The notes under the pieces: model-generated
The model's input: the letters and a program-made list of their open reading frames with translations, nothing else
The model's database searches: none
Told to the model about the DNA's origin: nothing
Assembly (NCBI GenBank): GCA_017459425.1
Contig: JAFUCZ010000024.1
Location: 9,672-41,671 of the forward strand
From: Bacilli bacterium
GTDB taxonomy: Bacteria > Bacillota_I > Bacilli_A > RF39 > UBA660
Reading direction: 5' to 3'
Length of the DNA: 32,000 nt
Program-made: the position numbers and the translations under genes
Shown: in pieces, positions 6,035 to 30,030 of the stretch
Numbering within the stretch: position 1 is the first letter of the stretch
Layout of the letters: the number at the start of each line of letters is the position of its first letter

Positions 6035-6118
6035 GCATTTTAATTAATTTTATATTAAATGGGCTAATATCTATACATCTAAAATAGTTATTAATACTAT
6101 AAAGTGAGGGGGAAATTT

Positions 6119-6559: not shown

Positions 6560-6570
6560 GGGGTTAGATT

Positions 6571-7128
6571 ATGTGGATTTATGAAAAAAAATTACAATAT
6601 CCAGTTAATATTAGAAAAAAAGATTTAAAAATGGCAAAATATTTATTATCTCAATATGGGGGACCAGATTCAGAGTTATCTGCTTCACTTAGATATTTAA
6701 ATCAAAGATATACAATGCCAGATGATAAGGGTAAAGCTCTTTTAACAGACATTGGGACTGAAGAATTAGCGCATTTAGAAATAATAGCTACTATGGCATA
6801 TCAACTAATGCAAGGCGCTACAATCGATGAAATTAAAAATGCTGGATTAGGTGGTATGTTTGCACAGCATGATAGTGGATTATTTCCAACTGATGCGATG
6901 GGTGTTCCATTTACAACAGCTTATATTGAAACATCAGGTGATCATATAGCTGATATTGAAAGTGATATGGCTGCAGAGCAAAGAGCTAGAGCTACTTATG
7001 AGCATTTAATGGATTTAACTAATGATCCTGATGTTTTAGCGCCGCTTTCATTTTTAAGACAAAGAGAAGTAGTTCATTATCAAAGATTTAAAGAACTTAG
7101 AAATTATTATTTGGATAATAAAATATAA
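6571..7128 (+). CDS. cotJC: Spore coat protein CotJC (manganese-catalase-like ferritin fold)
   Basis: MWIYEKKLQYPVNI...YGGPDSELSASLRYLNQRYTMP...GTEELAHLEIIATM...EQRARATYEHL are the conserved CotJC/Mn-catalase family blocks. Length is 185 aa. Confidence 0.9.
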   Translation: MWIYEKKLQYPVNIRKKDLKMAKYLLSQYGGPDSELSASLRYLNQRYTMPDDKGKALLTDIGTEELAHLEIIATMAYQLMQGATIDEIKNAGLGGMFAQHDSGLFPTDAMGVPFTTAYIETSGDHIADIESDMAAEQRARATYEHLMDLTNDPDVLAPLSFLRQREVVHYQRFKELRNYYLDNKI

Positions 7129-13955: not shown

Positions 13956-14194
13956 ACTCTCCCTACTTGCGTATTATTATATACTGGGACTAATATTTGT
14001 TAACATATTTTCATTACATCGTCATTATTTTGTAAAGTATTTAGTAGAATTACTGATTACTACATATAATTAAAGAAGTTTTATTATATTTCCTTATCTA
14101 TTTTCGGTAATATATGCTATATTTATTTAAAACAAAAGAAATGATTTTCTTATGAAAACACACTTTTTTGTGCACTTACTTTTGATTCAACGTT

Positions 14195-16870
14195 TTATTT
14201 TTTTATAATTTCATTTAGTTTTTTGATTATTATTTCTTTTTCTCTTGAACCATTTGTTTTAAATCTAAGTAGTGGAATATCACACTTTTTTAAAATATTA
14301 TTTTTTATTTGGTCTCTTATTATTTGTTTCTTTTTATTATGAAAAAAATATCCATCTACTTCTATTGCAAGTACAGGCTTTTTATCAAATTTATTAAATA
14401 TTAGAAAATCTATATGTGAATTATGATTAATAAATTCAATTTCTCTTTCATTTAAAATAGTTTTATCTTTAACTATTTTTCTTAATGGATATACTTTATC
14501 TAAAACATCATATGTACTATATTCATCCATTTGTAGTATTTCTTTTATAGTATTATACATAATAGTTTCTGAATCAAATTTAGAAAAAATAGTATGTGCT
14601 TTTAAATATTGTTTTTTAGTATCTTCATTTACTTTGTATAGTAAATCAAATATTGAGTTTATTTTACTTTCTACTTCTTCAAATTTATTATATTTAATAT
14701 AACTTATTAAATTAGAAATATTAGAATTATTACTTGATTTATATTCATCTGGTGTAACTAAAAATAGTTTATTAATAGCTCTAGATACTGCTACATTAAT
14801 AGAATTAGGATTATCTAAAAATTTTGTTATATTGTTTGCTACTGTAGAAAAAATAATAGTATCTTTTTCTCTTCCTTGAAATCCATGAACTGTATCTATA
14901 GATACATTTGGGCAATTAATTTCACCTATTAGATAATTTTTTTGGGCTTTATATGGAGTTATAATTCCTACCCGATCTTTATTTATATCTATTTTTTCAT
15001 TTGGTATTAGTTCATCTATTATAATTTCTGCTTGTCTTAAATTATACCAACTATTATCTCTTTTTCTAGCGTGATTACCTTTTACTGATTTATATTGTTT
15101 AATTGGCTCATTATTATTACTTTCTGATAGTATTATTAATTCATTATTATAGAATTTTTTATTACAAAAATTTATTATTTTAGGATGACATCTATAATGT
15201 TCTCTTAAAATGACTATATTATTAACTGTTTTTTTAGTTAAATCAAGTAAACTATTTTTAGTGTAATTAAATTTTTCTTCTATATCATATTTATTAAATA
15301 TTTCATTAAAATCTATATTTTTATCAACTATGTTAGGTAGTTGCTTAGAATCTCCTACTATTATTACGTTTTTAGCCATGCTAAGTGCAGCAAATGAAGA
15401 TACTAGATCTGCTTGAGAAGATTCATCTATAATCATGTAATCAAACATAAAAGATTTATTAACACAATTTATTAATGAATATGTAGTACTAAGTATTACA
15501 GGGTAATCTTTTATTAATTCTTGTGTATTATAAATTGTTTTTTTATCATATATTTTTTTATTATTATAATTTTTATATACATAATCTTTAAATAATTTCA
15601 TAGAAATATCTGTATATGTTTTAAATAATTTTTCATAATTTAAATTCTTTATATAATCTTTTTTTTCTTGTACTTGTGTTTCTAATTCTTTTATTCTTTT
15701 TTCGTAATATGAATATTCTAAATAATTTAAAATATCTACTATTTTATTACTAGTATCAATTTTATATTTTATTTTTGATTTAATTTGTATTAATTTACTA
15801 AAATATTCTTTTTTGTTTTTTTGTTTATTTAAAAACATTAAAACTTCATGTAATTTTTTTGAATCATAATCAGGTAAATTAATTACTTTTATATTAGATA
15901 TATCAATACTTTTTTTAAAATAATTATATTCTGTTTTTAATTCATCTAATTCTTGATTTGCTGCAGCTATTTCATTTTTTATATTTAAATATGAATCTAT
16001 ATCACTATTCATTATATTTAAATTATTTTTTATTTTATTTATTTCTTCGTCATTTAATTTCCAATTATCAGGATATAATTCATTAGATTGATTATTAATA
16101 AAATCTTTAATATTACTAGATTTACCTAATTTCGCACATATAGAAGATAAAGATTGTTTTTTTAATTTTTCATATACGTTATCAGTGGCACTATTATTAT
16201 TAGATATAACAGCTACACTATAATTTGAAATAATACAATTAGATATTATATTTAAAATTGTTTGTGTTTTACCTGTACCAGGTTGTCCTTCTATTGCACT
16301 AACATAATTATTAAGTGCATTATTTAATGCTTTTTTTTGACTTAAATTAAAACTAAATGGAAATATATTAGTATCTATTTTAGTGCCTTTATCTTTAATA
16401 CCATTAACATAATACTTAATGACTGAATCTTCATTTATAAATTTTAATTTATCATATATCTTACTTAATACACTATTATCTTCATTATTTGATATATCTT
16501 TAATAGTTAAATAACTTGATATTTCATTTAAATAATTATAAACATTTCTTACATTTATATTAGATAGCAAATTACTTTTAATTGTAACTTCAGAATTATT
16601 ATATAATTTAGTAGTATTATTACTAAAAAATACTTTTATATAATTATCAAACTTTAATATTTTTTCTACATTAATTAAAGTATTATATGAAGTTGATATT
16701 ATAGAATCTTTTATGATTATAGGATATTCTTTTATTATTAAATTAGATTTATTATATGTATATATTTTATCACTATAATTAACACTTACTAAATTATCAT
16801 TAATATCAACTACATTTTTAGTTATATCTTTATCATTATTTATTACTAATATCTTTTCTTCATTTAACAT
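14195..16870 (-). CDS. Superfamily 1 (Upf1/DNA2-like, AAA_11/AAA_12-type) helicase with a C-terminal DUF2726-like PD-(D/E)xK nuclease-fold domain
   Basis: Walker A GQPGTGKTQT, motif II MIIDESSQ, then VGDSKQLPN, LREHYRCHPKIINF, TVHGFQGREKD and NVAVSRA (motif VI). The C-terminal HIDFLIFNKFDKKPVLAIEVDGYFFH...RDQIKNNILKKCDIPLLRF resembles the DUF2726/Vsr-like endonuclease fold. It is on the same strand as the DGR RT and 54 nt downstream of it. Confidence 0.85.
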   Translation of the reverse strand: MLNEEKILVINNDKDITKNVVDINDNLVSVNYSDKIYTYNKSNLIIKEYPIIIKDSIISTSYNTLINVEKILKFDNYIKVFFSNNTTKLYNNSEVTIKSNLLSNINVRNVYNYLNEISSYLTIKDISNNEDNSVLSKIYDKLKFINEDSVIKYYVNGIKDKGTKIDTNIFPFSFNLSQKKALNNALNNYVSAIEGQPGTGKTQTILNIISNCIISNYSVAVISNNNSATDNVYEKLKKQSLSSICAKLGKSSNIKDFINNQSNELYPDNWKLNDEEINKIKNNLNIMNSDIDSYLNIKNEIAAANQELDELKTEYNYFKKSIDISNIKVINLPDYDSKKLHEVLMFLNKQKNKKEYFSKLIQIKSKIKYKIDTSNKIVDILNYLEYSYYEKRIKELETQVQEKKDYIKNLNYEKLFKTYTDISMKLFKDYVYKNYNNKKIYDKKTIYNTQELIKDYPVILSTTYSLINCVNKSFMFDYMIIDESSQADLVSSFAALSMAKNVIIVGDSKQLPNIVDKNIDFNEIFNKYDIEEKFNYTKNSLLDLTKKTVNNIVILREHYRCHPKIINFCNKKFYNNELIILSESNNNEPIKQYKSVKGNHARKRDNSWYNLRQAEIIIDELIPNEKIDINKDRVGIITPYKAQKNYLIGEINCPNVSIDTVHGFQGREKDTIIFSTVANNITKFLDNPNSINVAVSRAINKLFLVTPDEYKSSNNSNISNLISYIKYNKFEEVESKINSIFDLLYKVNEDTKKQYLKAHTIFSKFDSETIMYNTIKEILQMDEYSTYDVLDKVYPLRKIVKDKTILNEREIEFINHNSHIDFLIFNKFDKKPVLAIEVDGYFFHNKKKQIIRDQIKNNILKKCDIPLLRFKTNGSREKEIIIKKLNEIIKK

Positions 16871-16874
16871 AAAA

Positions 16875-16893
16875 ATACCTCATTCAGAGGTAT
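16875..16893 (-). promoter_or_regulatory. Hairpin overlapping the helicase Shine-Dalgarno sequence (terminator-like or SD-sequestering)
   Basis: The minus strand reads ATACCTC-TGAAT-GAGGTAT followed by TTTTT and ATG. The GAGGT RBS is the 3' arm of the stem. The same hairpin is conserved in the relic at 13488-13507. Confidence 0.35.
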
Positions 16894-16924
16894 TATATCA
16901 TCATTTTTATTATATTTAAAGATA

Positions 16925-17992
16925 TTATAAATAACTATCTATAATTTTTTCTATTTTTTTCTTATTACATCTATATGAATAATAATAATTCATCATAGAT
17001 GAAAAATATGTTTCAAATTTTAATTTTTCATTTTTGTATAAATATATTTTCTTTTTTACATTTTTCTTCATATTCTTAACAGAACTTCTTTTAACAATCA
17101 TTATTGTTTTTTTATTTTGTATAAAAAATTTATAACCTAGAAATGTAAAACCATATTTAGAACTCGTAATAAATGTTTTATTTATACTTATATCCAATTT
17201 ATATTCATTATTTAGTTTATTAATTATTATTTCTTTGCATTTTTTTAAATATAATAAATCATCACTAAAAATTAAAAAATCATCCATATACCTTACATAG
17301 TGTTTTAATTTTAATGTATGAATTATATAGTGATCTAGTCTGGATAAATAATATATTGACAAGCATTGACTACTTAAATTACCAATTGGTAAGCCTTTGC
17401 CGTATTCATATAAAGGTACTTTTAAATTTTTATTATTTTTAAGGATTTTTTTTATATTTGAATTTATATAATCATAATTAGTACTATCAATTATTTTACA
17501 TACAAAATTATATTCACAATCACTTAAATCTGTTTTTAACATTGCCTTTAATATGTCATGATCTATCCTATAAAAATACTTACTTATATCTATTTTTAAA
17601 ACATAAAATATTTTATTTTTTCTTTTATAAAACTCTATATATTTTTTTACTAAATTTATGGCATAATCGGTACCTTTGCCTATACGTGTAGCAACATTTC
17701 TATCATCTAATTTTTTTTCTAATTTAGGTATTAGATAATTAGTAGTATAATAATGATTTATTATTTTGTCGTTAATACTTAATGACATAATAAGCCTAGG
17801 TTTTGGTTCATATATTAAAAAAATATTGTATTTATGAATAAGTGGCTCTATACCATTTAATACATCAACAATATATTTTAAATGCTCTGATTTATGCATT
17901 TCCAAATTAATTAATTTATTTTTATTTTTTACTGTCTTTTTTAATGTTTGTTCATAAAATTCAAGTACATCACGTATTGTTATTTTTTTCAT
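16925..17992 (-). CDS. Diversity-generating retroelement reverse transcriptase
   Basis: RT motifs are present: the motif 4 region LPIGNLSSQCLSIYYL (the (I/L)GxxxSQ signature that distinguishes DGR RTs), motif 5 YVRYMDDFLIFS (YxDD), and FTFLGYKF. The 355-aa size is typical of DGR RTs. It overlaps the avd-like gene by 23 nt, and the TR and VRs lie nearby. Confidence 0.9.
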   Translation of the reverse strand: MKKITIRDVLEFYEQTLKKTVKNKNKLINLEMHKSEHLKYIVDVLNGIEPLIHKYNIFLIYEPKPRLIMSLSINDKIINHYYTTNYLIPKLEKKLDDRNVATRIGKGTDYAINLVKKYIEFYKRKNKIFYVLKIDISKYFYRIDHDILKAMLKTDLSDCEYNFVCKIIDSTNYDYINSNIKKILKNNKNLKVPLYEYGKGLPIGNLSSQCLSIYYLSRLDHYIIHTLKLKHYVRYMDDFLIFSDDLLYLKKCKEIIINKLNNEYKLDISINKTFITSSKYGFTFLGYKFFIQNKKTIMIVKRSSVKNMKKNVKKKIYLYKNEKLKFETYFSSMMNYYYSYRCNKKKIEKIIDSYL

Positions 17993-18335
17993 ATACTATC
18001 CAACCCCTAACTTTTTTATTTAAATCTAATAAAAGTGCGGTTTTTTCATGAAAAATAGATTCAGTAATATATCCCTTTTTATATGATTCTTCAAGTAATA
18101 AATCAATCATACTAATTTTTGATAAAATTTTACTTTGATTTAAAATACGAATATCTTTAAATTTATTAAGTGGTATATAATTAGATTCATAAATAAGTTC
18201 TATTATCTCATAGGTTAATGTTTTTATTTTATCTTTAAGTATTATTTCCCTATTTGGAAATCTACATAAAATAGTATCTATTTCAAACAGGAATGTTTTA
18301 GCAATTACAATTATTTTAAACTTATTTTCTTTCAT
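17970..18335 (-). CDS. avd: Avd-like accessory variability determinant (four-helix-bundle protein)
   Basis: 121 aa and predicted all-helical. FPNREIILKDKIKTLTYEIIELIYESN and IDLLLEESYKKGYITESIFHEKTALLLDLNKKVRGWI fit the four-helix-bundle / 23S rRNA IVS protein family pattern. It is translationally coupled to the RT. Confidence 0.75.
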   Translation of the reverse strand: MKENKFKIIVIAKTFLFEIDTILCRFPNREIILKDKIKTLTYEIIELIYESNYIPLNKFKDIRILNQSKILSKISMIDLLLEESYKKGYITESIFHEKTALLLDLNKKVRGWIVYEKNNNT

Positions 18336-18672
18336 TTAAAAAATTATCTATTACATCAATTAAATCATTTAATTGATTAAAATTTGCTTTCATTATTTTT
18401 TCTTGTATTTGATTAATTTTTAAATCAAGAATTAATTTGTTTTTTGATTCTATTAAATAATTACTGTAATTATCGTCTTCAAAATGTTTTATTTCATCAT
18501 TTAATTTATAATCAATATGTAATTCGTCTAATTTTGATTTAACCTTGTCAATACTACTTAGTGGAAAACCAACTCTACTATCTTTTAGTTTATAATTAAA
18601 TAAATTATGTAATATTGTTGCGTCATCATCAAATACTGAATAAAAATTACCTGCTTTTCTAAAAACTATCAT
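18322..18672 (-). CDS. Small MutS domain-I-like DGR accessory protein (MSL-type)
   Basis: MIVFRKAGNFYSVFDDDATILHNLFNYKLKDSRVGFPLSSIDKVKSKLDELHIDYKL aligns by eye with the MutS mismatch-binding N-terminus (LLFYRMGDFYELFYDDA...L...LT.R...PMAGIP......YL.KL...G..V). It overlaps avd by 14 nt. Confidence 0.55.
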   Translation of the reverse strand: MIVFRKAGNFYSVFDDDATILHNLFNYKLKDSRVGFPLSSIDKVKSKLDELHIDYKLNDEIKHFEDDNYSNYLIESKNKLILDLKINQIQEKIMKANFNQLNDLIDVIDNFLNERK

Positions 18673-18896
18673 TAATAAACCTCACTTCATAAATATTAGT
18701 AAGGAGTAAATAACTCCTTACCATTACAACATACTACATTTTTACAAGATTATAGAATCGGTACGTATACCTATCGTCTTGTACTATCTTTAGGGTTACC
18801 CCTAGGACATGTGCTGTCTCCTACAATTATCATATTATTTGCGAGAAAATAATACCCGAATAAATATTTGACTACATTGTAAACTGAAATTGTAGC
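18673..18896 (-). ncRNA. Non-coding spacer 3' of the TR, probably part of the DGR RNA (Sp-like region)
   Basis: There is no ORF, and it is locally richer in G+C than its surroundings. Minus-strand hairpins are TAGGG-GTAA-CCCTA (18791-18804, GNRA-type loop), GGTA-TACG-TACC (18760-18771, UNCG-type loop) and gtaaggagt-tatt-tactccttac (18699-18721). Confidence 0.4.
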
Positions 18897-19010
18897 AGTC
18901 TACAGGGCGGACAGAACCGGCATTTAACGCATTGTTGTTATTGACGTTTCCTGTAGAGTTCACATTGAACACATTATTGGAATTTGAAGAATTCGCACGA
19001 GGCGAAAGGG
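18897..19010 (-). repeat. DGR template repeat (TR), 114 nt
   Basis: It is homologous to 19520-19633 and 21317-21430. All mismatches are at plus-strand T, which is A on the minus (coding/template) strand. In the target reading frame it is loaded with AAY Asn codons (...ANSSNSNNVFNVNSTGNVNNNNALNAGSVRPV). The 60-aa ORF at 18835-19017 in the track is this element, not a gene. Confidence 0.92.
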
Positions 19011-19040
19011 AAAACAAAAGCCAAAACTCAGAAAACTATC

Positions 19041-19355
19041 TTACCCTAACACACCTGCCCTAATTCTATCTAATATATCTATAACTATAAACTTATATAC
19101 GTACTCAGTATATCTATTTATATTGTTTTCATATGTTTTATCTATATTTAAATTATCTACTATAATATAATTAATACTTAATTTTTGAAATTTTTTTAAT
19201 ACTACAGTAATATCATCATTATATTTTTTAATATAATTTAAAATAATTTTATCTATACCAAAACATTTATACCCAAATTTATTTTTACTAGTTTTAAATA
19301 GCAATACATAATTAGGATATATTTTTTTTAAAAACCAATATCTATTATTGTACAT
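19041..19355 (-). CDS. Hypothetical small protein between the DGR targets and the TR, possibly a second MutS-domain-I-like accessory
   Basis: 104 aa. YWFLKKIYPNYVLLFKTSKNKFGYKCFGIDKIILNYI loosely parallels the MutS N-terminus (YL.LK...P..LLFYR.GDFYE.F..DA......L), and SINYIIVDNL parallels the VAI.EQ region. The similarity is weak and seen by eye only. Confidence 0.4.
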   Translation of the reverse strand: MYNNRYWFLKKIYPNYVLLFKTSKNKFGYKCFGIDKIILNYIKKYNDDITVVLKKFQKLSINYIIVDNLNIDKTYENNINRYTEYVYKFIVIDILDRIRAGVLG

Positions 19356-19386
19356 ATATAATTTATTAGTAGAATCCTTTTCTACC

Positions 19387-19414
19387 CGTCCAGTCTTGAA
19401 TACAAGACCGGACG
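19387..19414 (-). promoter_or_regulatory. 12-bp hairpin downstream of DGR target 2
   Basis: The minus strand reads cgtccggtcttg-tatt-caagactggacg. All 12 positions pair on the minus strand, one of them as G-U. The plus-strand version has an A-C mismatch, so the structure is strand-specific. A second 6-bp hairpin (gtagaa/ttctac) follows at 19369-19386. No T-run follows either hairpin. Confidence 0.4.
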
Positions 19415-19442
19415 ATTCCTTTCATTTTATCTTTTAATTCAA

Positions 19443-20840
19443 TTATTCTGTGTAATTTAGAACAAATGGTTTTGATTGTGTTCCATCACCAGAGGTGATT
19501 GTAACACCTGATTTTAAGTAGACTACAGGGCGGACAGAACCGGCATCCAACGCATGGTCGCCAGTGACGTAGCCTGTAGAGCGCACAATGAACACAATAT
19601 AGGAATAAGAAGAAGTCGCACGAGGCGAAAGGGTCCATGTCCACATACTTGTATTTAATAACCAATCATTATTCTTACAGTCTGTATATGTATTTTGCCA
19701 ATTTGGTATACTTGAATCTGATACGTATCCTACAGTATATGATAAACATGCATCTCTATCATGTGTACTTCCACCACTTGTCGCATATGCATAATCACTT
19801 GGATATATTAGTCCTACTTTACCTGTCCAACGCGTTGTTCTATTTACTGTATCACTACAATGTGTTGCATTTGAACATTGCTTACCTGTACTACTTGATC
19901 GCTCCCAACTATATAGTAGTGACGCTGTTATTCTTCCATCCCAGATATTTGCACTTGGTGTATCTAATGAGCCTAAGTACCATGTTGCATTATCTATCAT
20001 ATTTTTACTTGCTGTATCGCTCAATCCTGTATTTGTAAAATCACAGTTTGCTGTATTATAATTTCCATATGTATAACATTTGCCACTTTCTGCATTCCAA
20101 TACAAACTATTATTTACTTCGATTGTATCATAATTTGACGCGCTGTTATCTCCACAGTTAACTATTGAATTTGCTGAATCTAAAGTTGAACCTGCAATAC
20201 ATCTTAAATCTTCGTTCTCTTCATATCCTGGATTTAATAATTTCATTAAATCTGCTCCATCATAATCAGTTCCATCAGTTAGTGTTGATTCACCCCATTG
20301 GTTTACACCATATCCTCTATTAACATCTACCGCTGATGTATCAAATGAATAATTTCCAATTGGGCTTTGAACAAGTTTTAGTCTTCCATCAAATACTCCT
20401 ATTATTCTCCATACTTGATCATTAAATCTTACATAGTTATCTGGATTACTTCCTATAAACCTTAATTCATTTTCGTGATCTGTTGTTGATATTCCCTCAC
20501 CCTCTGTATTTAATGCTTTTATATATGATTCTGGTGTTTTCGGATTTGTACAACTATATTCACCATTTGTTCCATTAATTCTTACATATCCGCTAGGACA
20601 ACCTACATTAACTTCACAGAATGTTGCTTTTGTATATAATTCATCTAATGCAGTTTGTACATCTTCTACATCATTTCCACTCGAATCTTTAAAGCCGGAA
20701 GAGCTATTATCATATCCAACGTTATCACTTTGGTAAAGAATCGTAGCACCATAGACAGTTGTACTTGCTACAATTATTCCAATTATTATTCCATAAAATA
20801 ATTTTTTGTTATTATTAATATTATTTATTATTTTCTTCAT
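19443..20840 (-). CDS. DGR target protein 2: membrane-anchored/secreted protein with a C-terminal variable-region domain
   Basis: N-terminal hydrophobic anchor (LFYGIIIGIIVASTTVYG). VR1 encodes ...WTLSPRATSSYSYIVFIVRSTGYVTGDHALDAGSVRPVVYL about 25 residues from the C-terminus. The W.L(R)SP...G.VRP(A/V) module resembles C-type-lectin-fold/DUF6273-like ligand-binding domains used by DGR targets. An AGGAGGAAATAATT-ATG RBS follows 12 nt after the stop of target 1. Confidence 0.85.
   Translation of the reverse strand: MKKIINNINNNKKLFYGIIIGIIVASTTVYGATILYQSDNVGYDNSSSGFKDSSGNDVEDVQTALDELYTKATFCEVNVGCPSGYVRINGTNGEYSCTNPKTPESYIKALNTEGEGISTTDHENELRFIGSNPDNYVRFNDQVWRIIGVFDGRLKLVQSPIGNYSFDTSAVDVNRGYGVNQWGESTLTDGTDYDGADLMKLLNPGYEENEDLRCIAGSTLDSANSIVNCGDNSASNYDTIEVNNSLYWNAESGKCYTYGNYNTANCDFTNTGLSDTASKNMIDNATWYLGSLDTPSANIWDGRITASLLYSWERSSSTGKQCSNATHCSDTVNRTTRWTGKVGLIYPSDYAYATSGGSTHDRDACLSYTVGYVSDSSIPNWQNTYTDCKNNDWLLNTSMWTWTLSPRATSSYSYIVFIVRSTGYVTGDHALDAGSVRPVVYLKSGVTITSGDGTQSKPFVLNYTE
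19457..20534 (-). repeat. Copy A of the ~1.08-kb duplicated VR-bearing module
   Basis: Collinear with 21254-22334 at an offset of 1797-1800 nt, with one 3-nt indel. The encoded proteins are roughly 95 percent identical outside the VR by eye. Confidence 0.9.
19520..19633 (-). repeat. DGR variable repeat VR1
   Basis: I count 17 differences from the TR across 18901-19010, plus one at 18899. All are at TR adenines on the coding strand. The flanking invariant blocks are ccctttcgcctcgtgcg (5') and ccggttctgtccgccctgtag (3'). Confidence 0.92.
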
Positions 20841-20852
20841 AATTATTTCCTC

Positions 20853-23800
20853 CTAATTTAGCATCTCGTACAACTTGTCTATCATACATTGTACATTACT
20901 ACATCCAAGTGTACTATTAATATGTTCTATATTTTCTGCCATTACTCTTGTCCATTTAGCATATAATACTCCACTGTTATCTGTAAAAATAGTAGCAGAC
21001 ACTTGTGAAGACAATTTACCACTAGAATCAATTACTTTGGTTCCAGTTCCATTCTTGCCTGTATAATATCCACCAAATGCATATCCTTTTTTTGTTGGTA
21101 TTGTTATTCCATTACTACTTGTTGTAATTTGTGTAGTAGCTTCACTATTTAAATAATATCCTGTATTATATTTTTCATATATACTTGTTGTTCCTGTTGT
21201 AGTAGCATTTCTATTATCTAATTTTACTGAATATGTATCTGATGTTGGATCAGTTAAAACAAATGGTTTTGATTGTGTTCCATCACCAGAGGTGATTGTA
21301 ACACCTGATTTTAAGTAGACTACAGGGCGGACAGAACCGGCAAAGAACGCATCGGTGCTAATGACGTATCCTGTAGAGTGCACATAGAACACACTATTGG
21401 AATCTGAAGAAATCGCACGAGGCGAAAGGGTCCATGTCCACACGCCTGTATTTAATAACCAATCATTATTCTTACAGTCTGTATATGTATTTTGCCAATT
21501 TGGTATACTTGAATCTGATACATATCCTACAGTATATGATAAACATGCATCTCTATCATGTGTACTTCCTCCACTTGTTGCATATGCATAATCACTTGGA
21601 TATATTAGTCCTACTTTTCCTGTCCAACGCGTTGTTCTATTTACTGTATCACTACAATGTGCATTATTTTGTGTACATTGCTTACCTGTACTACTTGATC
21701 GCTCCCAACTATATAGTAGTGACGCTGTTACTCTTCCATCCCAGATATTTGCACTTGGTGTATCTAATGAGCCTAAGTACCATGTTGCATTATCTATCAT
21801 ATTTTTACTTGCTGTATCGCTCAATCCTGTATTTGTAAAATCACAGTTTGCTGTATTATAGTTTCCATATGTATAACATTTGCCACTTCCTGCATTCCAA
21901 TACAAACTATTATTTACTGAAACTGTATCATAATTTGACGCACTGTTATCTCCGCAGTTAACTATTGAATTTGTACTATCTAAAGTTGAACCTGCAATAC
22001 ATCTTAAATCTTGATTACTCTCATATCCTGGATTTAATAATTTCATTAAATCTGCTCCATCATAATCAGTTCCATCAGTTAGTGTTGATTCACCCCATTG
22101 GTTTACACCATACCCTTTATTTACATCTACCGCTGATGTATCAAATGAGTAACTACCTATTGGACTTTGAACAAGTTTTAATCTTCCATCAAATACTCCT
22201 ATTATTCTCCATATTTGATTATTAAATCTTACATAGTTATCTGGATTACTTCCTATAAATCTTAATTCATTTTCGTGATCTGTTGTTGATATTCCCTCAC
22301 CCTCTGTATTTAATATTTTAATTACAGATTCAGGATCGTTACCAACATATGTCCAATTTGCAGTATAACTTCTATTACCTGTTGAACCTGTAGGTATAGT
22401 TACATTTTTGCTTGGAGTATTTCCATTAGACCCAGTCCATCCATCAAATAAATAACCTGTTTTTTTTGGATTATTTAATGTGATTGCACTGCTTTCTTTT
22501 GTGTAACTTGTTGGATTTGTAGCACTTCCACCATTTAATGTGTATTCAATTGTATATGATATTGGTTCACATACTCCATATAACGCTACATCCGTTATTG
22601 GTGTTATTGTTTCGCCACTTGTATGTTGAATAGTTGTACCATTTTCATTTGCTGTCCATCCACAAGTATATCCTGTTTTTTCTATTGTTGGAAGTGTTAT
22701 ATTTCCACTACCACTAAATCTAGCAAATAAAGTAATATCTTCATCATGTATCCAATTTGATTCTTCATCTGTATATTCGTTTATACTTGGAGTTAATACT
22801 GGTTTATTTGTATTATCTAGCATTAGATCTCCACCATTTTGTAATGTATACCAACCATTAAATGAATATGAAGTAGTTAAGTTTTCATTACTACTTACTG
22901 TAGCGCCATTTGATTTTCTTGAATTTGATAATTCAAATCCACTTACTGTGTATTCTTTTTGTGGTACTACTATTTCTTCTGGATTAATATCTGCTGCATC
23001 GTATGTTACTTCAACACTAGCAGTTGGGTTATTTGTTGCTCCATTTTTATTTAAAGTAATAGTATAGGTATTTGCTATCCAATGTGCTGTTATAGTTTCT
23101 GATTTTTTAGCTAAAGTTTCAGGAGTAACCTTTACATCATTTGACGTATACCAGCCATCAAATGTGTATCCAGTTTTACTAACTGTAGGTAATTCACCAT
23201 AAGAAGTATTATATTCTATTCTTTTTGTAATTACTTCTTCTCCATTATTAGGATCAAATGTTATAGTGTAAATATCTGTTGTGTATATTGCATATAGTGT
23301 ATAAATTGGATATTCATTTAAATCTACTGTTAATTTATCTCCTTTACGATATTTAATTCTTGTACCATTTTGTTCATCTGTCCAACCACTAAATGTATAT
23401 CCTTCTTTTACTGGTTCTTCTAGTACGTTATTAACTAAGTTTAAAGTTAAATCTTCACCCTCATATTTTATTTGATCTGTTACACTGCTTCCGCCATTTT
23501 CTTGATAAGTAATATAGTATACTTTTCTAAAATCAAATACATTTGTTACATTTATTGTAGATGTACTTGGATTTGTTGTAGTATAAGTTACATATAAATC
23601 TAGTGTAGATTTTTTTTCAATTACATCTTTGAAATTAAATATAGTACCATTTGCATATTTTATAGTTGTAATTAATCCATTATCGTTTGAAGTTGTAGTC
23701 ATGTTATATATAGTTTGATCGAAATCACCATTGTTTGCAATAGTTACTTTATATGTTATAGATGAATTACTATTAGGTAAAACAAACCCACTAGTTATTT

Positions 23801-24005
23801 TATCAACATTATATTCGCTTTCATATTTTATTTCTGCACCATTTAATGTACTACCACTTAAAACTATTCCATCTACTCTAATATCAGATATAGGTCTGAT
23901 TTTTACTTCTGATGTGATAGACAAAGAAGTAGAAAGTGCTGAATATGCTACTGTTGTAAGCATTACAAAAATAACGCTTAAAAAAATCATAATTTTCTTC
24001 TGCAT
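20853..24005 (-). CDS. DGR target protein 1: large secreted surface protein with Listeria-Bacteroides (Flg_new-type) repeats and an internal variable-region domain
   Basis: Signal/anchor MQKKIMIFLSVIFVMLTTVAYSAL. There are at least six G(Y)xFxGW(Y/T)...G repeat units (GYTFSGWTDEQNGT, GYTFDGWYTSND, SFNGWYTLQNGG, GYTCGWTANENGT, GYLFDGWTGSNGN, GYAFGGYYTGKNGTG). The VR2-encoded segment is WTLSPRAISSDSNSVFYVHSTGYVISTDAFFAGSVRPVVYL. Confidence 0.85.
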   Translation of the reverse strand: MQKKIMIFLSVIFVMLTTVAYSALSTSLSITSEVKIRPISDIRVDGIVLSGSTLNGAEIKYESEYNVDKITSGFVLPNSNSSITYKVTIANNGDFDQTIYNMTTTSNDNGLITTIKYANGTIFNFKDVIEKKSTLDLYVTYTTTNPSTSTINVTNVFDFRKVYYITYQENGGSSVTDQIKYEGEDLTLNLVNNVLEEPVKEGYTFSGWTDEQNGTRIKYRKGDKLTVDLNEYPIYTLYAIYTTDIYTITFDPNNGEEVITKRIEYNTSYGELPTVSKTGYTFDGWYTSNDVKVTPETLAKKSETITAHWIANTYTITLNKNGATNNPTASVEVTYDAADINPEEIVVPQKEYTVSGFELSNSRKSNGATVSSNENLTTSYSFNGWYTLQNGGDLMLDNTNKPVLTPSINEYTDEESNWIHDEDITLFARFSGSGNITLPTIEKTGYTCGWTANENGTTIQHTSGETITPITDVALYGVCEPISYTIEYTLNGGSATNPTSYTKESSAITLNNPKKTGYLFDGWTGSNGNTPSKNVTIPTGSTGNRSYTANWTYVGNDPESVIKILNTEGEGISTTDHENELRFIGSNPDNYVRFNNQIWRIIGVFDGRLKLVQSPIGSYSFDTSAVDVNKGYGVNQWGESTLTDGTDYDGADLMKLLNPGYESNQDLRCIAGSTLDSTNSIVNCGDNSASNYDTVSVNNSLYWNAGSGKCYTYGNYNTANCDFTNTGLSDTASKNMIDNATWYLGSLDTPSANIWDGRVTASLLYSWERSSSTGKQCTQNNAHCSDTVNRTTRWTGKVGLIYPSDYAYATSGGSTHDRDACLSYTVGYVSDSSIPNWQNTYTDCKNNDWLLNTGVWTWTLSPRAISSDSNSVFYVHSTGYVISTDAFFAGSVRPVVYLKSGVTITSGDGTQSKPFVLTDPTSDTYSVKLDNRNATTTGTTSIYEKYNTGYYLNSEATTQITTSSNGITIPTKKGYAFGGYYTGKNGTGTKVIDSSGKLSSQVSATIFTDNSGVLYAKWTRVMAENIEHINSTLGCSNVQCMIDKLYEMLN
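21254..22334 (-). repeat. Copy B of the ~1.08-kb duplicated VR-bearing module
   Basis: See copy A. It includes VR2 and the identical downstream block ...ggtgattgtaacacctgattttaagtagac. Confidence 0.9.
21317..21430 (-). repeat. DGR variable repeat VR2 (internal to target 1)
   Basis: I count 13 differences from the TR across 18901-19010, plus one at 18899. All are at TR adenines. VR1 and VR2 differ from each other at many of the same positions. Confidence 0.92.
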
Positions 24006-24229: not shown

Positions 24230-25228
24230 TTAATCCATTTCTTTTCTAGTTACTTTATATTCATAATTTTGAGTATCCATAATTACAAATTTAGATTCAT
24301 TTTCATTTACTTTTACATAAATTATAGGTTTTTCTAAATTATTTCTTACATCCAATAATTCTTTAAAACTATTAATAGATACAACAGGTGCATTACTATC
24401 AATAAATGAATTATTAGATTCTGTAATATATGAATCATTTTCTCTTAAAAGTTTTTTAATATATCTTTCATATTTACTTTCTTTACTAAGTCTACTTTTA
24501 ATTTTAAGTGCTAGTATTACTAGAGAAACAAAACCTAAAGCAGCAAGCATAATAGATATACCAAACATTACTTTATTAAGTGGTGATTCACTTGTTCTTA
24601 AAGAGTATGGTTCATTACTAGAAATATCAGAGCTTTTAGAAATATTAATCATTTGTCTAGAAAGAGGTATTTCTACAGTCATTTTCTTACTACCTACTAT
24701 ATCGTTTTCTTTACTCTCATACATTAAATCATAATCGATAACTAAATTACAATTAGCGCTTATTCCATAATCACTTTTAAATTTATTTGCTAAATTATTA
24801 TATTTAGTATAATCAATTTTTATTTGATCAGATACATCTATATTTTCACTAGTATTAGCATCTTGTTTTAATATATCATTTTCAGAATAAATTACTTTAT
24901 CGTTATTTTCTGTATCAACTATTTTTATATCAGCAACAATTTTTTTATTTATATCAAAAGTATCTTTAATGTCATAAGTTGCCTTATAATTGAAATTTAA
25001 ATCAATATAATCTACTATACTAGAAATATATTGCATTCCTTCATCTAAATAATCCCTATTGTAATAAGTTTTATCATTTAAATATACTTTGTATTTAACC
25101 CCACCATTTTCTTTAAAATCAACCACTGTTGATATTTGTTGCTTTGATTGCATAAAGAAATAAAAACTTAATATTCCTAATATTACTGTCAAAACAACCA
25201 TTGCCAACTCGCTTTTACTCTTTTCCAT
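24230..25228 (-). CDS. Bitopic membrane protein associated with the SipW-type peptidase (possibly DUF5305-like)
   Basis: 332 aa with an N-terminal TM helix (LAMVVLTVILGILSFYFFM), an extracytoplasmic segment of about 200 aa, a second TM helix (VMFGISIMLAALGFVSLVILAL) and a cytoplasmic tail. It lies 12 nt downstream of the signal peptidase gene. The family assignment is recollection only. Confidence 0.5.
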   Translation of the reverse strand: MEKSKSELAMVVLTVILGILSFYFFMQSKQQISTVVDFKENGGVKYKVYLNDKTYYNRDYLDEGMQYISSIVDYIDLNFNYKATYDIKDTFDINKKIVADIKIVDTENNDKVIYSENDILKQDANTSENIDVSDQIKIDYTKYNNLANKFKSDYGISANCNLVIDYDLMYESKENDIVGSKKMTVEIPLSRQMINISKSSDISSNEPYSLRTSESPLNKVMFGISIMLAALGFVSLVILALKIKSRLSKESKYERYIKKLLRENDSYITESNNSFIDSNAPVVSINSFKELLDVRNNLEKPIIYVKVNENESKFVIMDTQNYEYKVTRKEMD

Positions 25229-25240
25229 TTTTATCCTCCT

Positions 25241-26365
25241 TTAAAACATTTCATTTAACCAAATACTTGGCAAACCTACTTTATCAACGATAAATATTAC
25301 TTTTCCAAGAACATCATCGTCCCCAACAACACCAGCATCTACCTGGTCATTGTTATCACCTTTTGTAGAATAAAATCTATAATTTTGTCTTTCATACACT
25401 TTATAAATTCTATGTGATATCAATTTATTTTCATGTCTGAATACAATTATGTCGCCAACTTCTAATTTGGATTTTTCAGTATCACGTAGTTTTTTTAGAA
25501 TTACAACATCACCTTTTTCAAAAGTACCTAACATTGAATTAGATCCAATAACTAAAGATTGATATTTAAAAAAGCCTGAATTTAAACCCACTAAAGAAAG
25601 TAATACAACTAAACAAATACCAAAAACAATGTTATTTCTGTGTCTGTTTTTTGGTTTTTCAAGTTTTTTCATTCTATTATTAAGTAACATAAAAGAAATA
25701 AATGTTGGTAATACTATCATAAATACTGATGAAACATAAGTACCCATATTAGGTACAAATGGAACAATATAAATATACAATTCCATTATTAATCTATAAA
25801 TAATTCCATTATAAAAATCACTCTTCATTGCAAATATTGTCATCAGTACATTTCTACTAATTCCATCTATTACTACAATTGCTATAAATTTATATAATTG
25901 TTCTTTATCAGCTAAATTATAATTAGTGAATCCAATACTAATATCTAGCATTACAAACACTAAAAAACTCATAAAAATAACTAATTTATTGTTATCTGAT
26001 TTTTTGATAAATTGATATCTTAAAACTTCACTTGCGATTATAACTGTCGATACCGGAATAATGTTTTTAACAAAGTTTACTACCGACCAAGAATAAATTG
26101 TACGTGCGAATGAAATAAAAAGACCAAGTAAGTAAATAAATAAGAAATAAATAATTAAATAAATGAGTAAACTTTTTAAAATTTCTTTATGATTCGAAGG
26201 TTTTTTTATATCTATTCCTATAGCAAAATAAACTATAGCAAAAGATACACATAAAAAGATAAGATATTTATCATGAGTGAACAATGCAGGTTGCAAGAAG
26301 CTTATCAATATTACTACAAGCATTAATATTTCAATAATTAATAACTTTTTTACCCCACTTTTCAT
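25241..26365 (-). CDS. sipW: SipW-like (archaeal/ER-type) signal peptidase I fused to a large polytopic N-terminal membrane domain
   Basis: The C-terminal ~120 aa (GSNSMLGTFEKGDVVIL...VGDIIVF...ISHRIYKV...STKGDNNDQVD) parallel B. subtilis SipW blocks (SGSMEP.F.TGD / VGDVITF / THRI / TKGDNN...D). The first ~250 aa are multiple hydrophobic helices that ordinary SipW lacks. Confidence 0.75.
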   Translation of the reverse strand: MKSGVKKLLIIEILMLVVILISFLQPALFTHDKYLIFLCVSFAIVYFAIGIDIKKPSNHKEILKSLLIYLIIYFLFIYLLGLFISFARTIYSWSVVNFVKNIIPVSTVIIASEVLRYQFIKKSDNNKLVIFMSFLVFVMLDISIGFTNYNLADKEQLYKFIAIVVIDGISRNVLMTIFAMKSDFYNGIIYRLIMELYIYIVPFVPNMGTYVSSVFMIVLPTFISFMLLNNRMKKLEKPKNRHRNNIVFGICLVVLLSLVGLNSGFFKYQSLVIGSNSMLGTFEKGDVVILKKLRDTEKSKLEVGDIIVFRHENKLISHRIYKVYERQNYRFYSTKGDNNDQVDAGVVGDDDVLGKVIFIVDKVGLPSIWLNEMF

Positions 26366-26400
26366 AACTCACCTTCTCACTCTTATCTACTCTAAAAATA

Positions 26401-26429
26401 ATTATATTAAATTATTTTTATTTTGTCAA
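26401..26429 (-). promoter_or_regulatory. Consensus sigma-A promoter upstream of the signal peptidase gene
   Basis: The minus strand reads TTGACA, a 17-nt spacer, then TATAAT. Confidence 0.55.
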
Positions 26430-26452
26430 ATACAATAAATTGATTAAAAAAA

Positions 26453-26472
26453 ACATAAGTAAATACTTATGT
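26453..26472 (-). terminator. Rho-independent terminator after the 26472-27092 gene
   Basis: The minus strand reads acataagt-attt-acttatgt followed by tttttttt. Confidence 0.6.
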
Positions 26473-27092
26473 TAATTATTATAATCTTGTCCATATATTA
26501 GAACAGCTGTTATATTATTAAAATGCACACTATGACTTGGTAATACTTGCGGTTCATCTCTTCTTACATATTCAATAGTAACCATTAATTCACGTGTTCC
26601 ATTATTTTTTTCTAATTTATCGCCTATTTTTATATCTGTACCATCTGCATATGTGAATTTAATTTCAATGTCATTTATTAGATTTTTTCTTGAAATATCA
26701 TCTAATGTTTCAGCAGAATTCCAAATTATATTTCCTACTTTTATATCAGTTTTACCTGTTAATATAGCATTAATATCACCTTTATTTTTTACATTCCATT
26801 TATATATCACTTTATCGCCTGGTGCTTTTAGTAATGCGTGTGGCAATGTAATTATTGTTGAATTTGGATTGAATGTTAAATAATCTTGTTCAACACTTGC
26901 ATACTCTAATATTGTAATAGATGAACCACTATCTAATAGATTAAAACTGACATCCCAATTATTTGAATTATTTTCAGATAGCATATTATTACTAATAGCA
27001 GGTTTTCTAGTAAAGGTAGCAAAAATAATTGTTACTATTACTACACCAACTATAAGTATTGATAATAATGTATTTTTTTCTTTCTTCGACAT
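26472..27092 (-). CDS. Secreted beta-rich protein, paralog of 27178-27819 (putative minor fibre/matrix subunit, TasA/camelysin-like context)
   Basis: N-terminal anchor/signal (LLSILIVGVVIVTIIFATF). It is colinear with its neighbour: LPHALLKAPGDKVIYKWNVKNKGDINAILTGKTDIKVG...NDIEIKFTYADGT...LMVTIEY versus LPMVTLKAPGDKVEYVWAVENTGDINAVLTGKTDITLG...NDIDVKFTYADGT...LKVTVEY. Confidence 0.55.
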   Translation of the reverse strand: MSKKEKNTLLSILIVGVVIVTIIFATFTRKPAISNNMLSENNSNNWDVSFNLLDSGSSITILEYASVEQDYLTFNPNSTIITLPHALLKAPGDKVIYKWNVKNKGDINAILTGKTDIKVGNIIWNSAETLDDISRKNLINDIEIKFTYADGTDIKIGDKLEKNNGTRELMVTIEYVRRDEPQVLPSHSVHFNNITAVLIYGQDYNN

Positions 27093-27114
27093 AACACACC
27101 TCTATCATAAATTA

Positions 27115-27143
27115 ATGATATTAAATTATTTTAAATTTGTCAA
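27115..27143 (-). promoter_or_regulatory. Sigma-A-type promoter of the 26472-27092 gene
   Basis: The minus strand reads TTGACA, a 17-nt spacer, then TATCAT. Confidence 0.5.
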
Positions 27144-27154
27144 TAAAAAGAAAA

Positions 27155-27178
27155 AAACTTAAGTATAAACTTAAGTTT
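27155..27178 (-). terminator. Rho-independent terminator after the 27178-27819 gene
   Basis: 10-bp stem aaacttaagt/acttaagttt, followed by a T-run on the minus strand. Confidence 0.6.
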
Positions 27179-27819
27179 TATGCATTGTCTTGTCCGTAAG
27201 TTAATGCTGCTGTGATGTTACTAAATGTTACATCTTTACTTGGTAAAGTTTGAGTTTCACCAGTTTTCTTGTATTCAACTGTAACTTTTAAAAGTGCTTT
27301 ACCAGTTGTTTTAGCTAACTTATCAGTATTTGCTGTAATAGCAGTTCCATCAGCATAAGTGAATTTAACATCAATATCGTTAATTAATGCTGCTTTACCA
27401 TTAGCATCTAAAGTTTCATCATTTGCCCAAGTTGCAGCACCTAAAGTGATATCAGTTTTACCAGTTAAAACTGCATTAATATCACCAGTATTTTCAACAG
27501 CCCAAACATATTCAACTTTATCACCAGGTGCTTTTAAAGTAACCATTGGTAAAGTTACGATTGTTGAGTCAGAAGTAAATGATAATGCTGCATCTTGTGC
27601 CATAGTAGCATATCCAGTTGTAGTAATAGGTTGGTAAGTACTTCCATCTTTAGTAGTATCTAAAGCTCTAAAACGTACCTTCCAGCTTGATGCAATATTT
27701 TGCACTGTAGCACTACCATTAATATTTAATGTTTGAGTAAGTGCTGCATAAGCAACTGTCATTGAAACAAGTCCTACAACTAATACTCCTAGTAAAACAT
27801 TCTTTGTCTTTTCGTTCAC
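27178..27819 (-). CDS. Secreted beta-rich protein, putative major subunit of a SipW-dependent fibre/matrix (TasA/camelysin-like context)
   Basis: The signal-like N-terminus ...LLGVLVVGLVSMTVAYAALTQTLNINGSATV precedes an Ala/Thr-rich mature part. Its codon usage is visibly different (less AT-biased) from its neighbours. It has its own promoter and terminator. I place the start at the GTG at 27819 (MNEKTKN...) because AAAGGAG lies 8 nt upstream and inside the track's 27837 start. Confidence 0.55.
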   Translation of the reverse strand: MNEKTKNVLLGVLVVGLVSMTVAYAALTQTLNINGSATVQNIASSWKVRFRALDTTKDGSTYQPITTTGYATMAQDAALSFTSDSTIVTLPMVTLKAPGDKVEYVWAVENTGDINAVLTGKTDITLGAATWANDETLDANGKAALINDIDVKFTYADGTAITANTDKLAKTTGKALLKVTVEYKKTGETQTLPSKDVTFSNITAALTYGQDNA

Positions 27820-27850
27820 AATTATTACTCCTTTCATATTTTACAATTTA

Positions 27851-29346: not shown

Positions 29347-29976
29347 TTATATTTCATTTAGTTTTTTATTGTAGTATTTTTCAGGATTTACGTTAACTCC
29401 ATTATGTATTAATTCAAAACTCAAATGATTATTAAGCTCAACCGATATATTAGAATTACCACTTTTACCTATTACTTGTCCTTGATTAATTGAATCACCT
29501 TTTTTTACATTTACTTCACCTAAGCTTTGATAAATACTTATCAAATTATTATCATGATTAATTCTTACAATATTACCAAGTAATTCATCTTCTTTTACTT
29601 CTTCAACAGTACCTGAAAGTATTGCCACTACATCAAAATTATCCTTACCACCATAACATACACCACTATTTTGCATGTATACATTGTCATGATATATAAT
29701 TGATTTTTCTTGATTACTTTCTTCACCTTCAAAATCATAATAATCTTTTACGATAGATATTTCACTATCAGTATAAGGTCTAATAATAGTTACATCGGTT
29801 GATACAACTGGAATATGCGTATCAAAAATAGTTTTACTTACATATCCATAAGTTTCATCTTTAAAATCACCTTTATTTAAAGTCACATCAAGTCCATACG
29901 CTATTCCTAAAACAGTAATAATACTAAGTCCATAAATACCAAACACTATACTTTTTTTTAGTTTTCTTTTCTTCAT
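29347..29976 (-). CDS. spoIIQ: Membrane-anchored LytM/M23-domain protein, SpoIIQ-like
   Basis: N-terminal TM helix (IVFGIYGLSIITVLGIAY) plus a C-terminal M23-type fold (GDSINQGQVIGKSGNSN...HLSFELIHNGVNVNP). The metal ligands look degenerate: HLSFE instead of HLHFE, and no HxxxD is visible. It sits between spoIID and spoIIID. Confidence 0.6.
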   Translation of the reverse strand: MKKRKLKKSIVFGIYGLSIITVLGIAYGLDVTLNKGDFKDETYGYVSKTIFDTHIPVVSTDVTIIRPYTDSEISIVKDYYDFEGEESNQEKSIIYHDNVYMQNSGVCYGGKDNFDVVAILSGTVEEVKEDELLGNIVRINHDNNLISIYQSLGEVNVKKGDSINQGQVIGKSGNSNISVELNNHLSFELIHNGVNVNPEKYYNKKLNEI

Positions 29977-30030
29977 TCTTTCACCTCTATTTAAAGTTTG
30001 AACAAAGAAAATAATTTTATACTTGTTTTT

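Follow-up and report, generated by a model that had tools for sequence, protein, structure and literature searches.

Which kind of element is represented by three closely similar DNA segments, one of them intergenic and two located in neighbouring genes, that lie on the strand of a nearby reverse transcriptase gene in a bacterial chromosome, and whose proteins does it diversify? The question arises for a stretch of 32,000 nucleotides (called the window below, by which the whole stretch is meant) from a Bacilli bacterium of the GTDB lineage Bacillota_I, Bacilli_A, RF39, UBA660 (assembly GCA_017459425.1, contig JAFUCZ010000024.1, positions 9,672 to 41,671 of the forward strand). The initial annotation, made by a model from the sequence alone, described a diversity-generating retroelement (DGR) with one template repeat (TR) and two variable repeats (VR1 and VR2). 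The mismatch pattern between the repeats, the protein families, covariation in an RNA next to the TR and the fold of the target proteins leave little doubt that the element is a complete chromosomal DGR with one TR and two VRs. It belongs to the type with a MutS-like accessory protein (MSL) and an Avd protein, known as 'Architecture D'.

The repeats are located as follows.

18897..19010, minus strand: TR, with the mutagenised block at 18900-19010, delimited by ungapped alignment and mismatch statistics.
19523..19633, minus strand: VR1, residues 403-440 of target protein 2 (465 amino acids).
21320..21430, minus strand: VR2, residues 859-896 of target protein 1 (1050 amino acids).

Ungapped alignment places the three segments in a gap-free block of 111 nt, with offsets from the TR of +623 for VR1 and +2420 for VR2, and thus reproduces the homology that the initial annotation had found by hand. 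The reported 17 and 13 substitutions were also recovered: all mismatches of VR1 (17/17) and of VR2 (13/13) are at a plus-strand T of the TR, which is an adenine on the coding minus strand. The coding strand of the TR block consists of 30 A, 32 T, 29 C and 20 G, and the hypergeometric probability that mismatches in the 111-nt block fall on adenines only is 2.6e-12 for VR1 and 4.0e-9 for VR2. The earlier count of about 31 coding-strand adenines matches these 30 plus position 18899; the latter lies outside the block, where the TR has A but both VRs have T, and position 18896 differs as well. At least one VR is altered at 20 of the 30 template adenines, and both are altered at 10. Between VR1 and VR2 there are 17 differences, and the 81 non-A positions are free of them, whereas the DNA surrounding the VRs in the paralogous target genes is ca. 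4-6% diverged. The homology ends sharply at 19010/19011, which is the 5' end on the minus strand, and at the 3' side after GTAG, which is followed by TCTAC in the VRs and by ACTGC in the TR.

The sequence design of the TR corresponds to that of a mutagenesis template. In the reading frame of the VRs it encodes ...ANSSNSNNVFNVNSTGNVNNNNALNAGSVRPV, with 12 AAY codons, in agreement with the translation and the asparagine-rich codon usage described earlier. No TR codon can be mutated to a stop codon, and 25 of the 30 adenines occupy codon positions 1 or 2, from which a potential diversity of 1.2e18 DNA sequences or 1e15 peptides per VR was computed. A GC-rich 3' anchor of 22 nt is the same in the TR and both VRs and occurs exactly three times in the window; no further copy was detected in the window even with three mismatches allowed, and shuffled sequences gave 0 matches. 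The TR is intergenic, 905 nt from the start of the reverse transcriptase gene, and each VR lies in the 3' part of a coding target gene. The GC content shows an extreme contrast, with 18% in the reverse transcriptase gene, 25.5% in the window, 44% in the TR and 53.5% in VR1.

For comparison a set of 80 related loci was used, from at least 80 species-level genomes, or 85 loci when those of the same strain are included in the scan. Adenine-biased TR/VR pairs were found in 34 of the 80 (39 of the 85 scanned). The two targets of the window are tandem paralogues, and nothing more than this speaks for the notion that the three segments are ordinary paralogous repeats in which the adenine pattern arose by chance or from base composition. 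The computed alignment refutes that notion, with 30 of 30 mismatches on A though A makes up only 27% of the block. Moreover, the third copy is outside any target gene and beside a DGR-type reverse transcriptase, and the same pattern recurs in the related loci mentioned, so the probability left to a fortuitous origin is practically nil.

The enzymatic part of the element is encoded at the downstream end of the cassette.

16925..17992, minus strand: DGR reverse transcriptase (RT), 355 amino acids, with the motifs IGNLSSQ and YMDD.
17970..18335, minus strand: Avd, 121 amino acids, isoelectric point (pI) 9.2, overlapping the MSL1 gene by 14 nt and the RT gene by 23 nt.
16874..16894, minus strand: terminator-like hairpin after the RT stop codon, at the end of the cassette, from a consensus scan.

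Among structures in the PDB, the RT is closest to the Bordetella enzyme bRT (8ub7, E = 1.4e-23, as compared to 2.9e-6 for group II RTs). It matches PHROG 1423 (1.1e-64, 220 bits), its similarity to the PADLOC models of defence RTs is weak (at most 90 bits), and the residues of the IGNLSSQ and YMDD motifs are invariant among 22 homologues. The matches to 8ub7 and PHROG 1423 confirm that a DGR-type RT with these motifs is present, and its distance of 905 nt from the TR, on the same strand, agrees with the 0.9-1 kb given by the initial annotation. The overlapping Avd-like gene was likewise correctly recognised: besides the 23-nt overlap with the RT gene, its product matches PHROG 3206 ('Avd protein of DGR', 3e-5). 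The gene is syntenic in all 80 related loci; a search with Avd against PDB sequences gave no match.

Two further small proteins complete the set of accessory genes.

18322..18672, minus strand: MSL1, MutS-like accessory protein, 116 amino acids, pI 5.6.
19041..19355, minus strand: orf104 or MSL2, second MutS-domain-I-like protein, 104 amino acids, basic, pI 9.6.

MSL1 is syntenic in 78 of the 80 related loci, and 20 of 22 members of its family match the Pfam domain MutS_I (best 4.8e-6). It keeps an invariant phenylalanine within the motif G-x-F-Y-x-x-F-D-D-D-A, which presumably aligns with the mismatch-stacking Phe36 of E. coli MutS (GDFYELFYDDA). The position of Glu38 of MutS is not conserved in MSL1, and the counterpart of the MSL1 phenylalanine is a lysine or arginine in the orf104 family.

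The initial annotation listed orf104 as an unassigned open reading frame (ORF), a description that has to be revised in view of its homology to MSL. Alignment of the orf104 and MSL families by hhalign gave a probability of 95.7% (E = 8.4e-9, 63 columns), and the hidden Markov models of the two families match each other's ORFs with values of 1e-4 to 1e-6. The AlphaFold2 model of orf104 (pLDDT 89.6) has MutSbeta and E. coli MutS as top matches in Foldseek, with a TMq of 0.50-0.57 and weak E-values of 0.08-0.9. The direct signal of the family to Pfam MutS_I is weak as well (3 of 29 members, best E = 0.024), and searches of PDB sequences with MSL1 and with the orf104 profile gave chance-level matches only. 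A profile search detected an orf104 homologue in 78 of the 80 related loci, always on the strand of the RT; usually the gene overlaps the RT stop codon by a few bases, and in a minority, as here, it is located between a target gene and the TR. Family members are basic (pI 9.4 +/- 0.4), in contrast to the near-neutral MSL1 family (7.6 +/- 1.4), and range from 75 to 106 amino acids in this clade. Among 1.84 billion representatives, the family forms 284 clusters at 50% identity, and the 150 clusters listed are all of 46-210 amino acids; members of the family thus appear to be small stand-alone proteins. As judged from these profile relationships, orf104 is paralogous to MSL and belongs to the conserved accessory genes; it is no bystander.

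No name or Pfam domain for the orf104 family was found in the sources searched. An identification with CH1 of Wu et al. was rejected, since CH1 is acidic, has 160-169 amino acids and never co-occurs with avd or MSL (Wu et al. 2018, PMC5758913). We found no published description of a second MSL paralogue in the literature searched; the protein could be one of the candidates PAG1-4 of Wu et al. 2018.

The region between the TR and the MSL1 gene, extending into the other flank of the TR, contains the following RNA features.

18741..18898, minus strand: structured noncoding RNA directly 3' of the TR, counterpart of the Bordetella 'Sp' spacer RNA.
18755..18775, minus strand: helix 6 of this RNA, a 9-bp stem with a UACG (UNCG-type) tetraloop, with compensatory changes in 9 of 9 pairs; likely the Avd-binding stem-loop.
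19049..19060, minus strand: upstream strand of a long-range duplex, within the 3' end of orf104.
18804..18819, minus strand: downstream strand of this duplex, containing an invariant ACA at 18815-18817.
18697..18723, minus strand: terminator-like hairpin (11-bp stem) that separates the structured RNA from the MSL1 gene, found in a consensus scan.

In all related loci, 150-350 nt of noncoding sequence are present between the TR and the MSL1 gene. The first ca. 160 nt were aligned for 25 loci, the RTs of which are only about 50% identical to the RT of the window. RNAalifold gave a structure of 35 pairs, 33 of which show compensatory changes. In this structure 93.8% of the cells are paired, versus 40-47% if the 3' partner is slid by 1-3 columns, and none of 500 shuffles reached the observed value. 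A covariance model has a single match in the window (18741-18898, 93 bits) and finds a full-length RNA in almost every related locus, many of them outside the training set. A search of the window against Rfam returned only tRNA-His, and no family for the RNA adjacent to the TR. In some related loci the covariance model matches two to four times (L023, 11579-13167; L035, 654-1402; L028, 2331-4114; also L078, L019, L058 and L082), which suggests DGRs with several TR-RNA units per RT.

The long-range duplex brackets the TR. Its upstream strand, with consensus AGGGUAAUCUUGU, pairs with the downstream strand ACAAAGAUUAUCCU, which is rich in invariant positions. All 25 loci form a duplex of 9-15 bp, with a mean z of -3.0, and the 17 distinct downstream strands among them are accompanied by matching changes upstream. 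This search was run against the conserved 16-nt strand; an unrestricted search of the TR flanks gave noisy solutions with long loops. An Avd-binding stem-loop and a 'cPRT Stop duplex' were found in the Bordetella DGR RNA and predicted in 207 other DGRs by Handa and co-workers, who noted that the stems are commonly of 9 bp with GNRA or UNCG tetraloops and the duplexes of about 13 bp (bioRxiv 10.1101/2023.10.23.563531). The stem-loop and duplex of the clade to which the window belongs correspond to these two elements, with strong support at the level of the family.

The VRs are located in the C-terminal parts of two proteins with a related module.

20853..24005, minus strand: target gene 1, 1050 amino acids, with an N-terminal signal/anchor segment, Flg_new repeats and a lectin-like module that bears VR2.
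19443..20840, minus strand: target gene 2, 465 amino acids, composed of a hydrophobic segment at the N-terminus, a linker and a C-type-lectin-like module of enlarged size.
19388-19415, minus strand: 12-bp hairpin between the stop codon of target gene 2 and orf104.

The C-terminal module of target 1 shares 94% DNA identity with target 2. Target 1 continues beyond the lectin-like module for ca. 155 residues with another repeat, and its Listeria-Bacteroides repeats match Pfam Flg_new (5.2e-35). Pfam has no domain for the shared module of ca. 360 amino acids, although the module has matches in more than 5,000 database proteins; a search against PDB sequences gave no match. An AlphaFold2 model of target 2 has a pLDDT of 84 overall and mostly 85-98 for residues 100-465. 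With this model, the best Foldseek match is the IgA peptidase of T. ramosa (9qa6, E = 1.8e-7, 363 columns), at 16% identity; with a TMq of only 0.34, this match is a partial one. Next in rank are Legionella Lcl, with its C-terminal domain (8q4e_A), and many C-type lectin domains (CTLDs), and among viral models DUF6273, DUF1566 and receptor-binding proteins were matched. The N-terminal domain of the IgA peptidase is a C-type-lectin domain of twice the usual size and related to Lcl (PMC12237041). Because the target model matches the CTLD of the IgA peptidase, Lcl, other CTLDs and DUF6273/DUF1566, the VRs are predicted to lie in an enlarged lectin-type fold, as in most DGRs. The domain of the T. 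ramosa protease that gave the best structural match is dispensable for cleavage in vitro. The hairpin downstream of target gene 2 (CGUCCGGUCUUG-UAUU-CAAGACUGGACG) contains one G-U pair, which can form on minus-strand RNA only, and probably represents a transcript end or processing site.

The components may act together by a mechanism in which priming, homing and the role of the MSL proteins are modelled on the Bordetella system. An RNA would be made from ca. 19060 to ca. 18700, in which the duplex of the upstream and downstream strands closes the TR into a loop and the 9-bp UACG-capped stem-loop docks Avd and RT. Synthesis of cDNA would be self-primed from the RNA at the 3' edge of the TR, and the TR would be copied with random bases opposite its 30 adenines. 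The cDNA would then replace VR1 or VR2, guided by the shared GC-rich 3' stretch and by 5' homology, so that up to 17 codons (12 of them AAY) could be recoded in two secreted or surface proteins, within their enlarged C-type-lectin fold. The probable site of action of the two small MutS-domain-I-like proteins is the heteroduplex of cDNA and VR, with its many mismatches. A role of the pair in preventing repair is plausible because host MutS has been reported to suppress retrohoming 5- to 10-fold in Bacteroides. We tentatively propose that the acidic-to-neutral MSL1, with its phenylalanine, and the basic MSL2, with lysine or arginine at that position, pair up asymmetrically in the manner of the mismatch-binding head of a MutS dimer and shield the heteroduplex from host mismatch repair, i.e. 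a dedicated anti-repair module; this is a possibility to be considered rather than an expectation.

Several observations on individual components weigh against the reading of the locus as a complete and functional DGR. The score of Avd with the NCBIfam Avd model is 17 bits (0.0048), under the cut-off of 80, which makes the assignment weak by that model, and MSL1 itself stays 0.3 bit short of the Pfam gathering threshold for MutS_I (6.6e-4, 20.3 versus 20.6 bits). In the RNA of the window, 8 of the 35 consensus pairs are unformed as aligned, including three of the nine that make up helix 6. In helix 1 the 5' partner seems to be shifted, judging from the pairing possibilities of the sequence: CUACAAUU, directly after the TR, would lie opposite AAUUGUAG. 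The long-range duplex of the window is 13 bp, with a z of only -1.6 relative to shuffles. A promoter scan gave nothing above chance, and no initiation of mutagenic homing (IMH) element could be defined past the boundary pattern of the repeats. Two imperfect hairpins downstream of the VRs provide weak evidence in this respect, and no counterpart was found in the TR flank.

21275..21304, minus strand: imperfect hairpin, 23 nt past the VR2 end, DNA fold -10.4 kcal/mol, z = -2.5.
19478..19507, minus strand: imperfect hairpin, 23 nt past the VR1 end, DNA fold -10.1 kcal/mol, z = -2.4.

The order of the genes on the minus strand is target 1 (VR2), target 2 (VR1), MSL2 (orf104), TR, structured RNA, MSL1, Avd and RT. 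This order and the overlaps are as given in the initial annotation, which extended the element further to a helicase gene directly after the RT.

14195-16870, minus strand: superfamily 1 (SF1) helicase (AAA_11/AAA_12) with a C-terminal DUF2726, resembling the Mokosh helicases MkoA/MkoC (160-175 bits).

The inclusion of the helicase in the gene order was not borne out. Its place on the same strand, immediately downstream of the RT, would fit a functional component of the retroelement, but the gene is absent from 80 of 80 related loci, and the block 14032-16924 is missing in strains with a 98%-identical DGR region, in which the RT is followed by RelB-YafQ. The terminator-like hairpin separates RT and helicase, with the insertion beginning right at this hairpin (16874..16894), and the similarity is to defence helicases. 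It is therefore scarcely credible that the helicase belongs to the DGR; the block is a strain-variable insertion and the helicase possibly a defence gene. A Fic-domain protein (5148-5762, minus strand) adjoins tRNA-His and matches the candidate defence family PDC-S04 (1.3e-100).

That the DGR resides on the chromosome, in a region lacking phage structural genes, holds true. The flanks contain the housekeeping genes for MreB, BipA/TypA and tRNA-His (5913-5988), no phage structural, packaging or integrase gene is present in the 32-kb window, and collections of phages (50,697 records) and plasmids (72,556) gave no match. The element could still be thought to be located on a prophage or other mobile element and to diversify a phage receptor-binding protein instead of host proteins. 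The target fold is indeed similar to that of receptor-binding, DUF6273 and DUF1566 proteins of phages, there are PHROG matches for RT and Avd, and neighbours of the mobile or defence type are present (a PD-(D/E)XK transposase-like gene, RelB, Fic and the helicase). Against such a location stand, besides the absence of phage genes and the housekeeping flanks with SpoIID, the lack of a match in the phage and plasmid records and, for the VR pattern, in IMG/VR, and the signal or anchor segments and cell-surface repeats of the targets. We regard a phage-borne DGR as very improbable and a chromosomal DGR as the appropriate description.

The host itself is a probable spore-former, a fair reading because the window encodes CotJB, a CotJC-type Mn catalase and SpoIID; the spore-forming Firmicute assumed earlier is plausible on these grounds.

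6104-7128, plus strand, and 29347-30954, minus strand: CotJB, CotJC-type Mn catalase, SpoIID and an M23 peptidase.

The RT is identical to a protein from an NCBI entry labelled 'MAG: Bacilli bacterium'. Relatives are almost exclusively metagenome-assembled genomes from the gut with the labels uncultured Bacilli, Tenericutes or Mycoplasma sp. CAG. Sporulation-associated genes thus occur in a lineage whose relatives carry the labels Tenericutes or Mycoplasma sp. CAG. Immediately upstream of target gene 1 (24230-27837, minus strand), the window harbors genes for a DUF5305 protein (24230-25228) and a SipW-like signal peptidase (25241-26365), and two small ORFs with secreted-looking products (26472-27092 and 27178-27837). 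The SipW and DUF5305 genes were rejected as part of the DGR, since they are not conserved beside related DGRs. Target 1 may be embedded in a SipW-dependent secretion or fibre operon.

The intact genes, the conserved TR, the two independently diversified VRs and the absence of non-A differences show that the element has diversified its targets in the past. The TR sequence does not vary among three assemblies of the same strain or in strains with a 98%-identical DGR region (L086-L088), the contigs of which end ca. 30 nt after VR1, so that their VRs are unreadable. Comparison of the assemblies gave no evidence of present activity. VR2 is the same throughout four assemblies, which come from at least three samples, and no new VR allele was found in the three other assemblies of the same strain (L001-L003). 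VR1 differs only in L001 and L002, where it is an exact copy of VR2 accompanied by three flank changes outside the TR homology. Relative to these two assemblies the target genes differ by 28 and 5 substitutions and a 3-nt indel, located at 19546-19649, 20061-20220 and 21522-21674. Each of the 33 substitutions that separate the assemblies in the two targets replaces a base by that of the paralogue, which speaks for gene conversion or mis-threaded assembly and against new homing. Scans of JGI metagenomes and IMG/VR with VR/TR anchor patterns gave no match.

Such data would be expected if the DGR were structurally intact but silent or domesticated, with VRs that were diversified formerly and no measurable homing in the lineage now. 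In favor of this are the identity of VR2 in the four assemblies and of VR1 in two of these, the only VR1 change being a VR2 copy that reaches into non-TR flank, and the lack of VR variants in the metagenomes and IMG/VR. On the other hand, all ORFs are intact, the TR is perfectly conserved even in the 98%-identical strains, and the RNA structure and accessory genes are kept. Furthermore, the assemblies are near-clonal (ca. 3 single-nucleotide differences outside the targets in 21 kb), and consensus contigs mask minority variants, which leaves identical VRs with little informative value. We consider a silent element unlikely on balance. The proposal that the DGR diversifies host surface proteins hence stands with respect to structure and past activity, whereas current activity finds no support in new VR variants among the independent assemblies.

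The DGR of Bordetella phage BPP-1 is among the closest known systems. Shared features are adenine-only differences between TR and VR, an Avd partner, a target with a C-type-lectin fold, an RNA structure 3' of the TR that includes a stem with a tetraloop, and a duplex that pairs the TR flanks. The BPP-1 enzyme bRT (8ub7) is the closest solved relative of the RT, at low sequence identity and with a match in two stretches of 38 and 47 bits. Unlike the BPP-1 element, the DGR of the window is chromosomal and not phage-borne, it has two targets and two extra MutS-like proteins, and it is arranged as TR, RNA, MSL1, avd, RT, where the phage element has avd, TR, Sp, brt. The combination of MSL and Avd defines 'Architecture D' of DGRs (Wu et al. 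2018, PMC5758913), and examples with MSL are the DGR of Legionella pneumophila and the Bfr, Bth and Bun DGRs of Bacteroides (bioRxiv 10.1101/2024.11.15.621889). As in these, a small near-neutral MutS-domain-I-like protein is encoded with Avd and RT; the pI of the MSL family is 7.6 +/- 1.4 in the clade of the window versus 7.2 +/- 1.7 reported for known MSLs. Unlike other 'Architecture D' DGRs, the clade possesses a second, basic MSL paralogue without the conserved phenylalanine. The target module finds its best structural matches in two domains, one N-terminal in the T. ramosa IgA peptidase and one C-terminal in Lcl; for the former, in contrast to the target module, no diversification is known.

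The DGR itself is one more instance among tens of thousands and an ordinary member of a well-known class. It occurs in a lineage of uncultured, AT-rich gut Bacilli, and the entire clade, with at least 80 species-level genomes, lacks annotation. The lectin-like family of variable proteins is very large (more than 5,000 members), has no Pfam domain and resembles in structure the N-terminal domain of an IgA protease from the gut. The RNA adjacent to the TR shows strong covariation; it could become a family of the Rfam type and help to find TRs, including those of loci with multiple TRs. The near-universal second MSL of the clade, together with the suppression of retrohoming by MutS, provides a testable handle on how cDNA may escape mismatch repair. 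If one lead deserves to be followed, it is the pair of MSL proteins; both this pair and the RNA supported by covariation are by-products at the level of the clade, of moderate interest to specialists.

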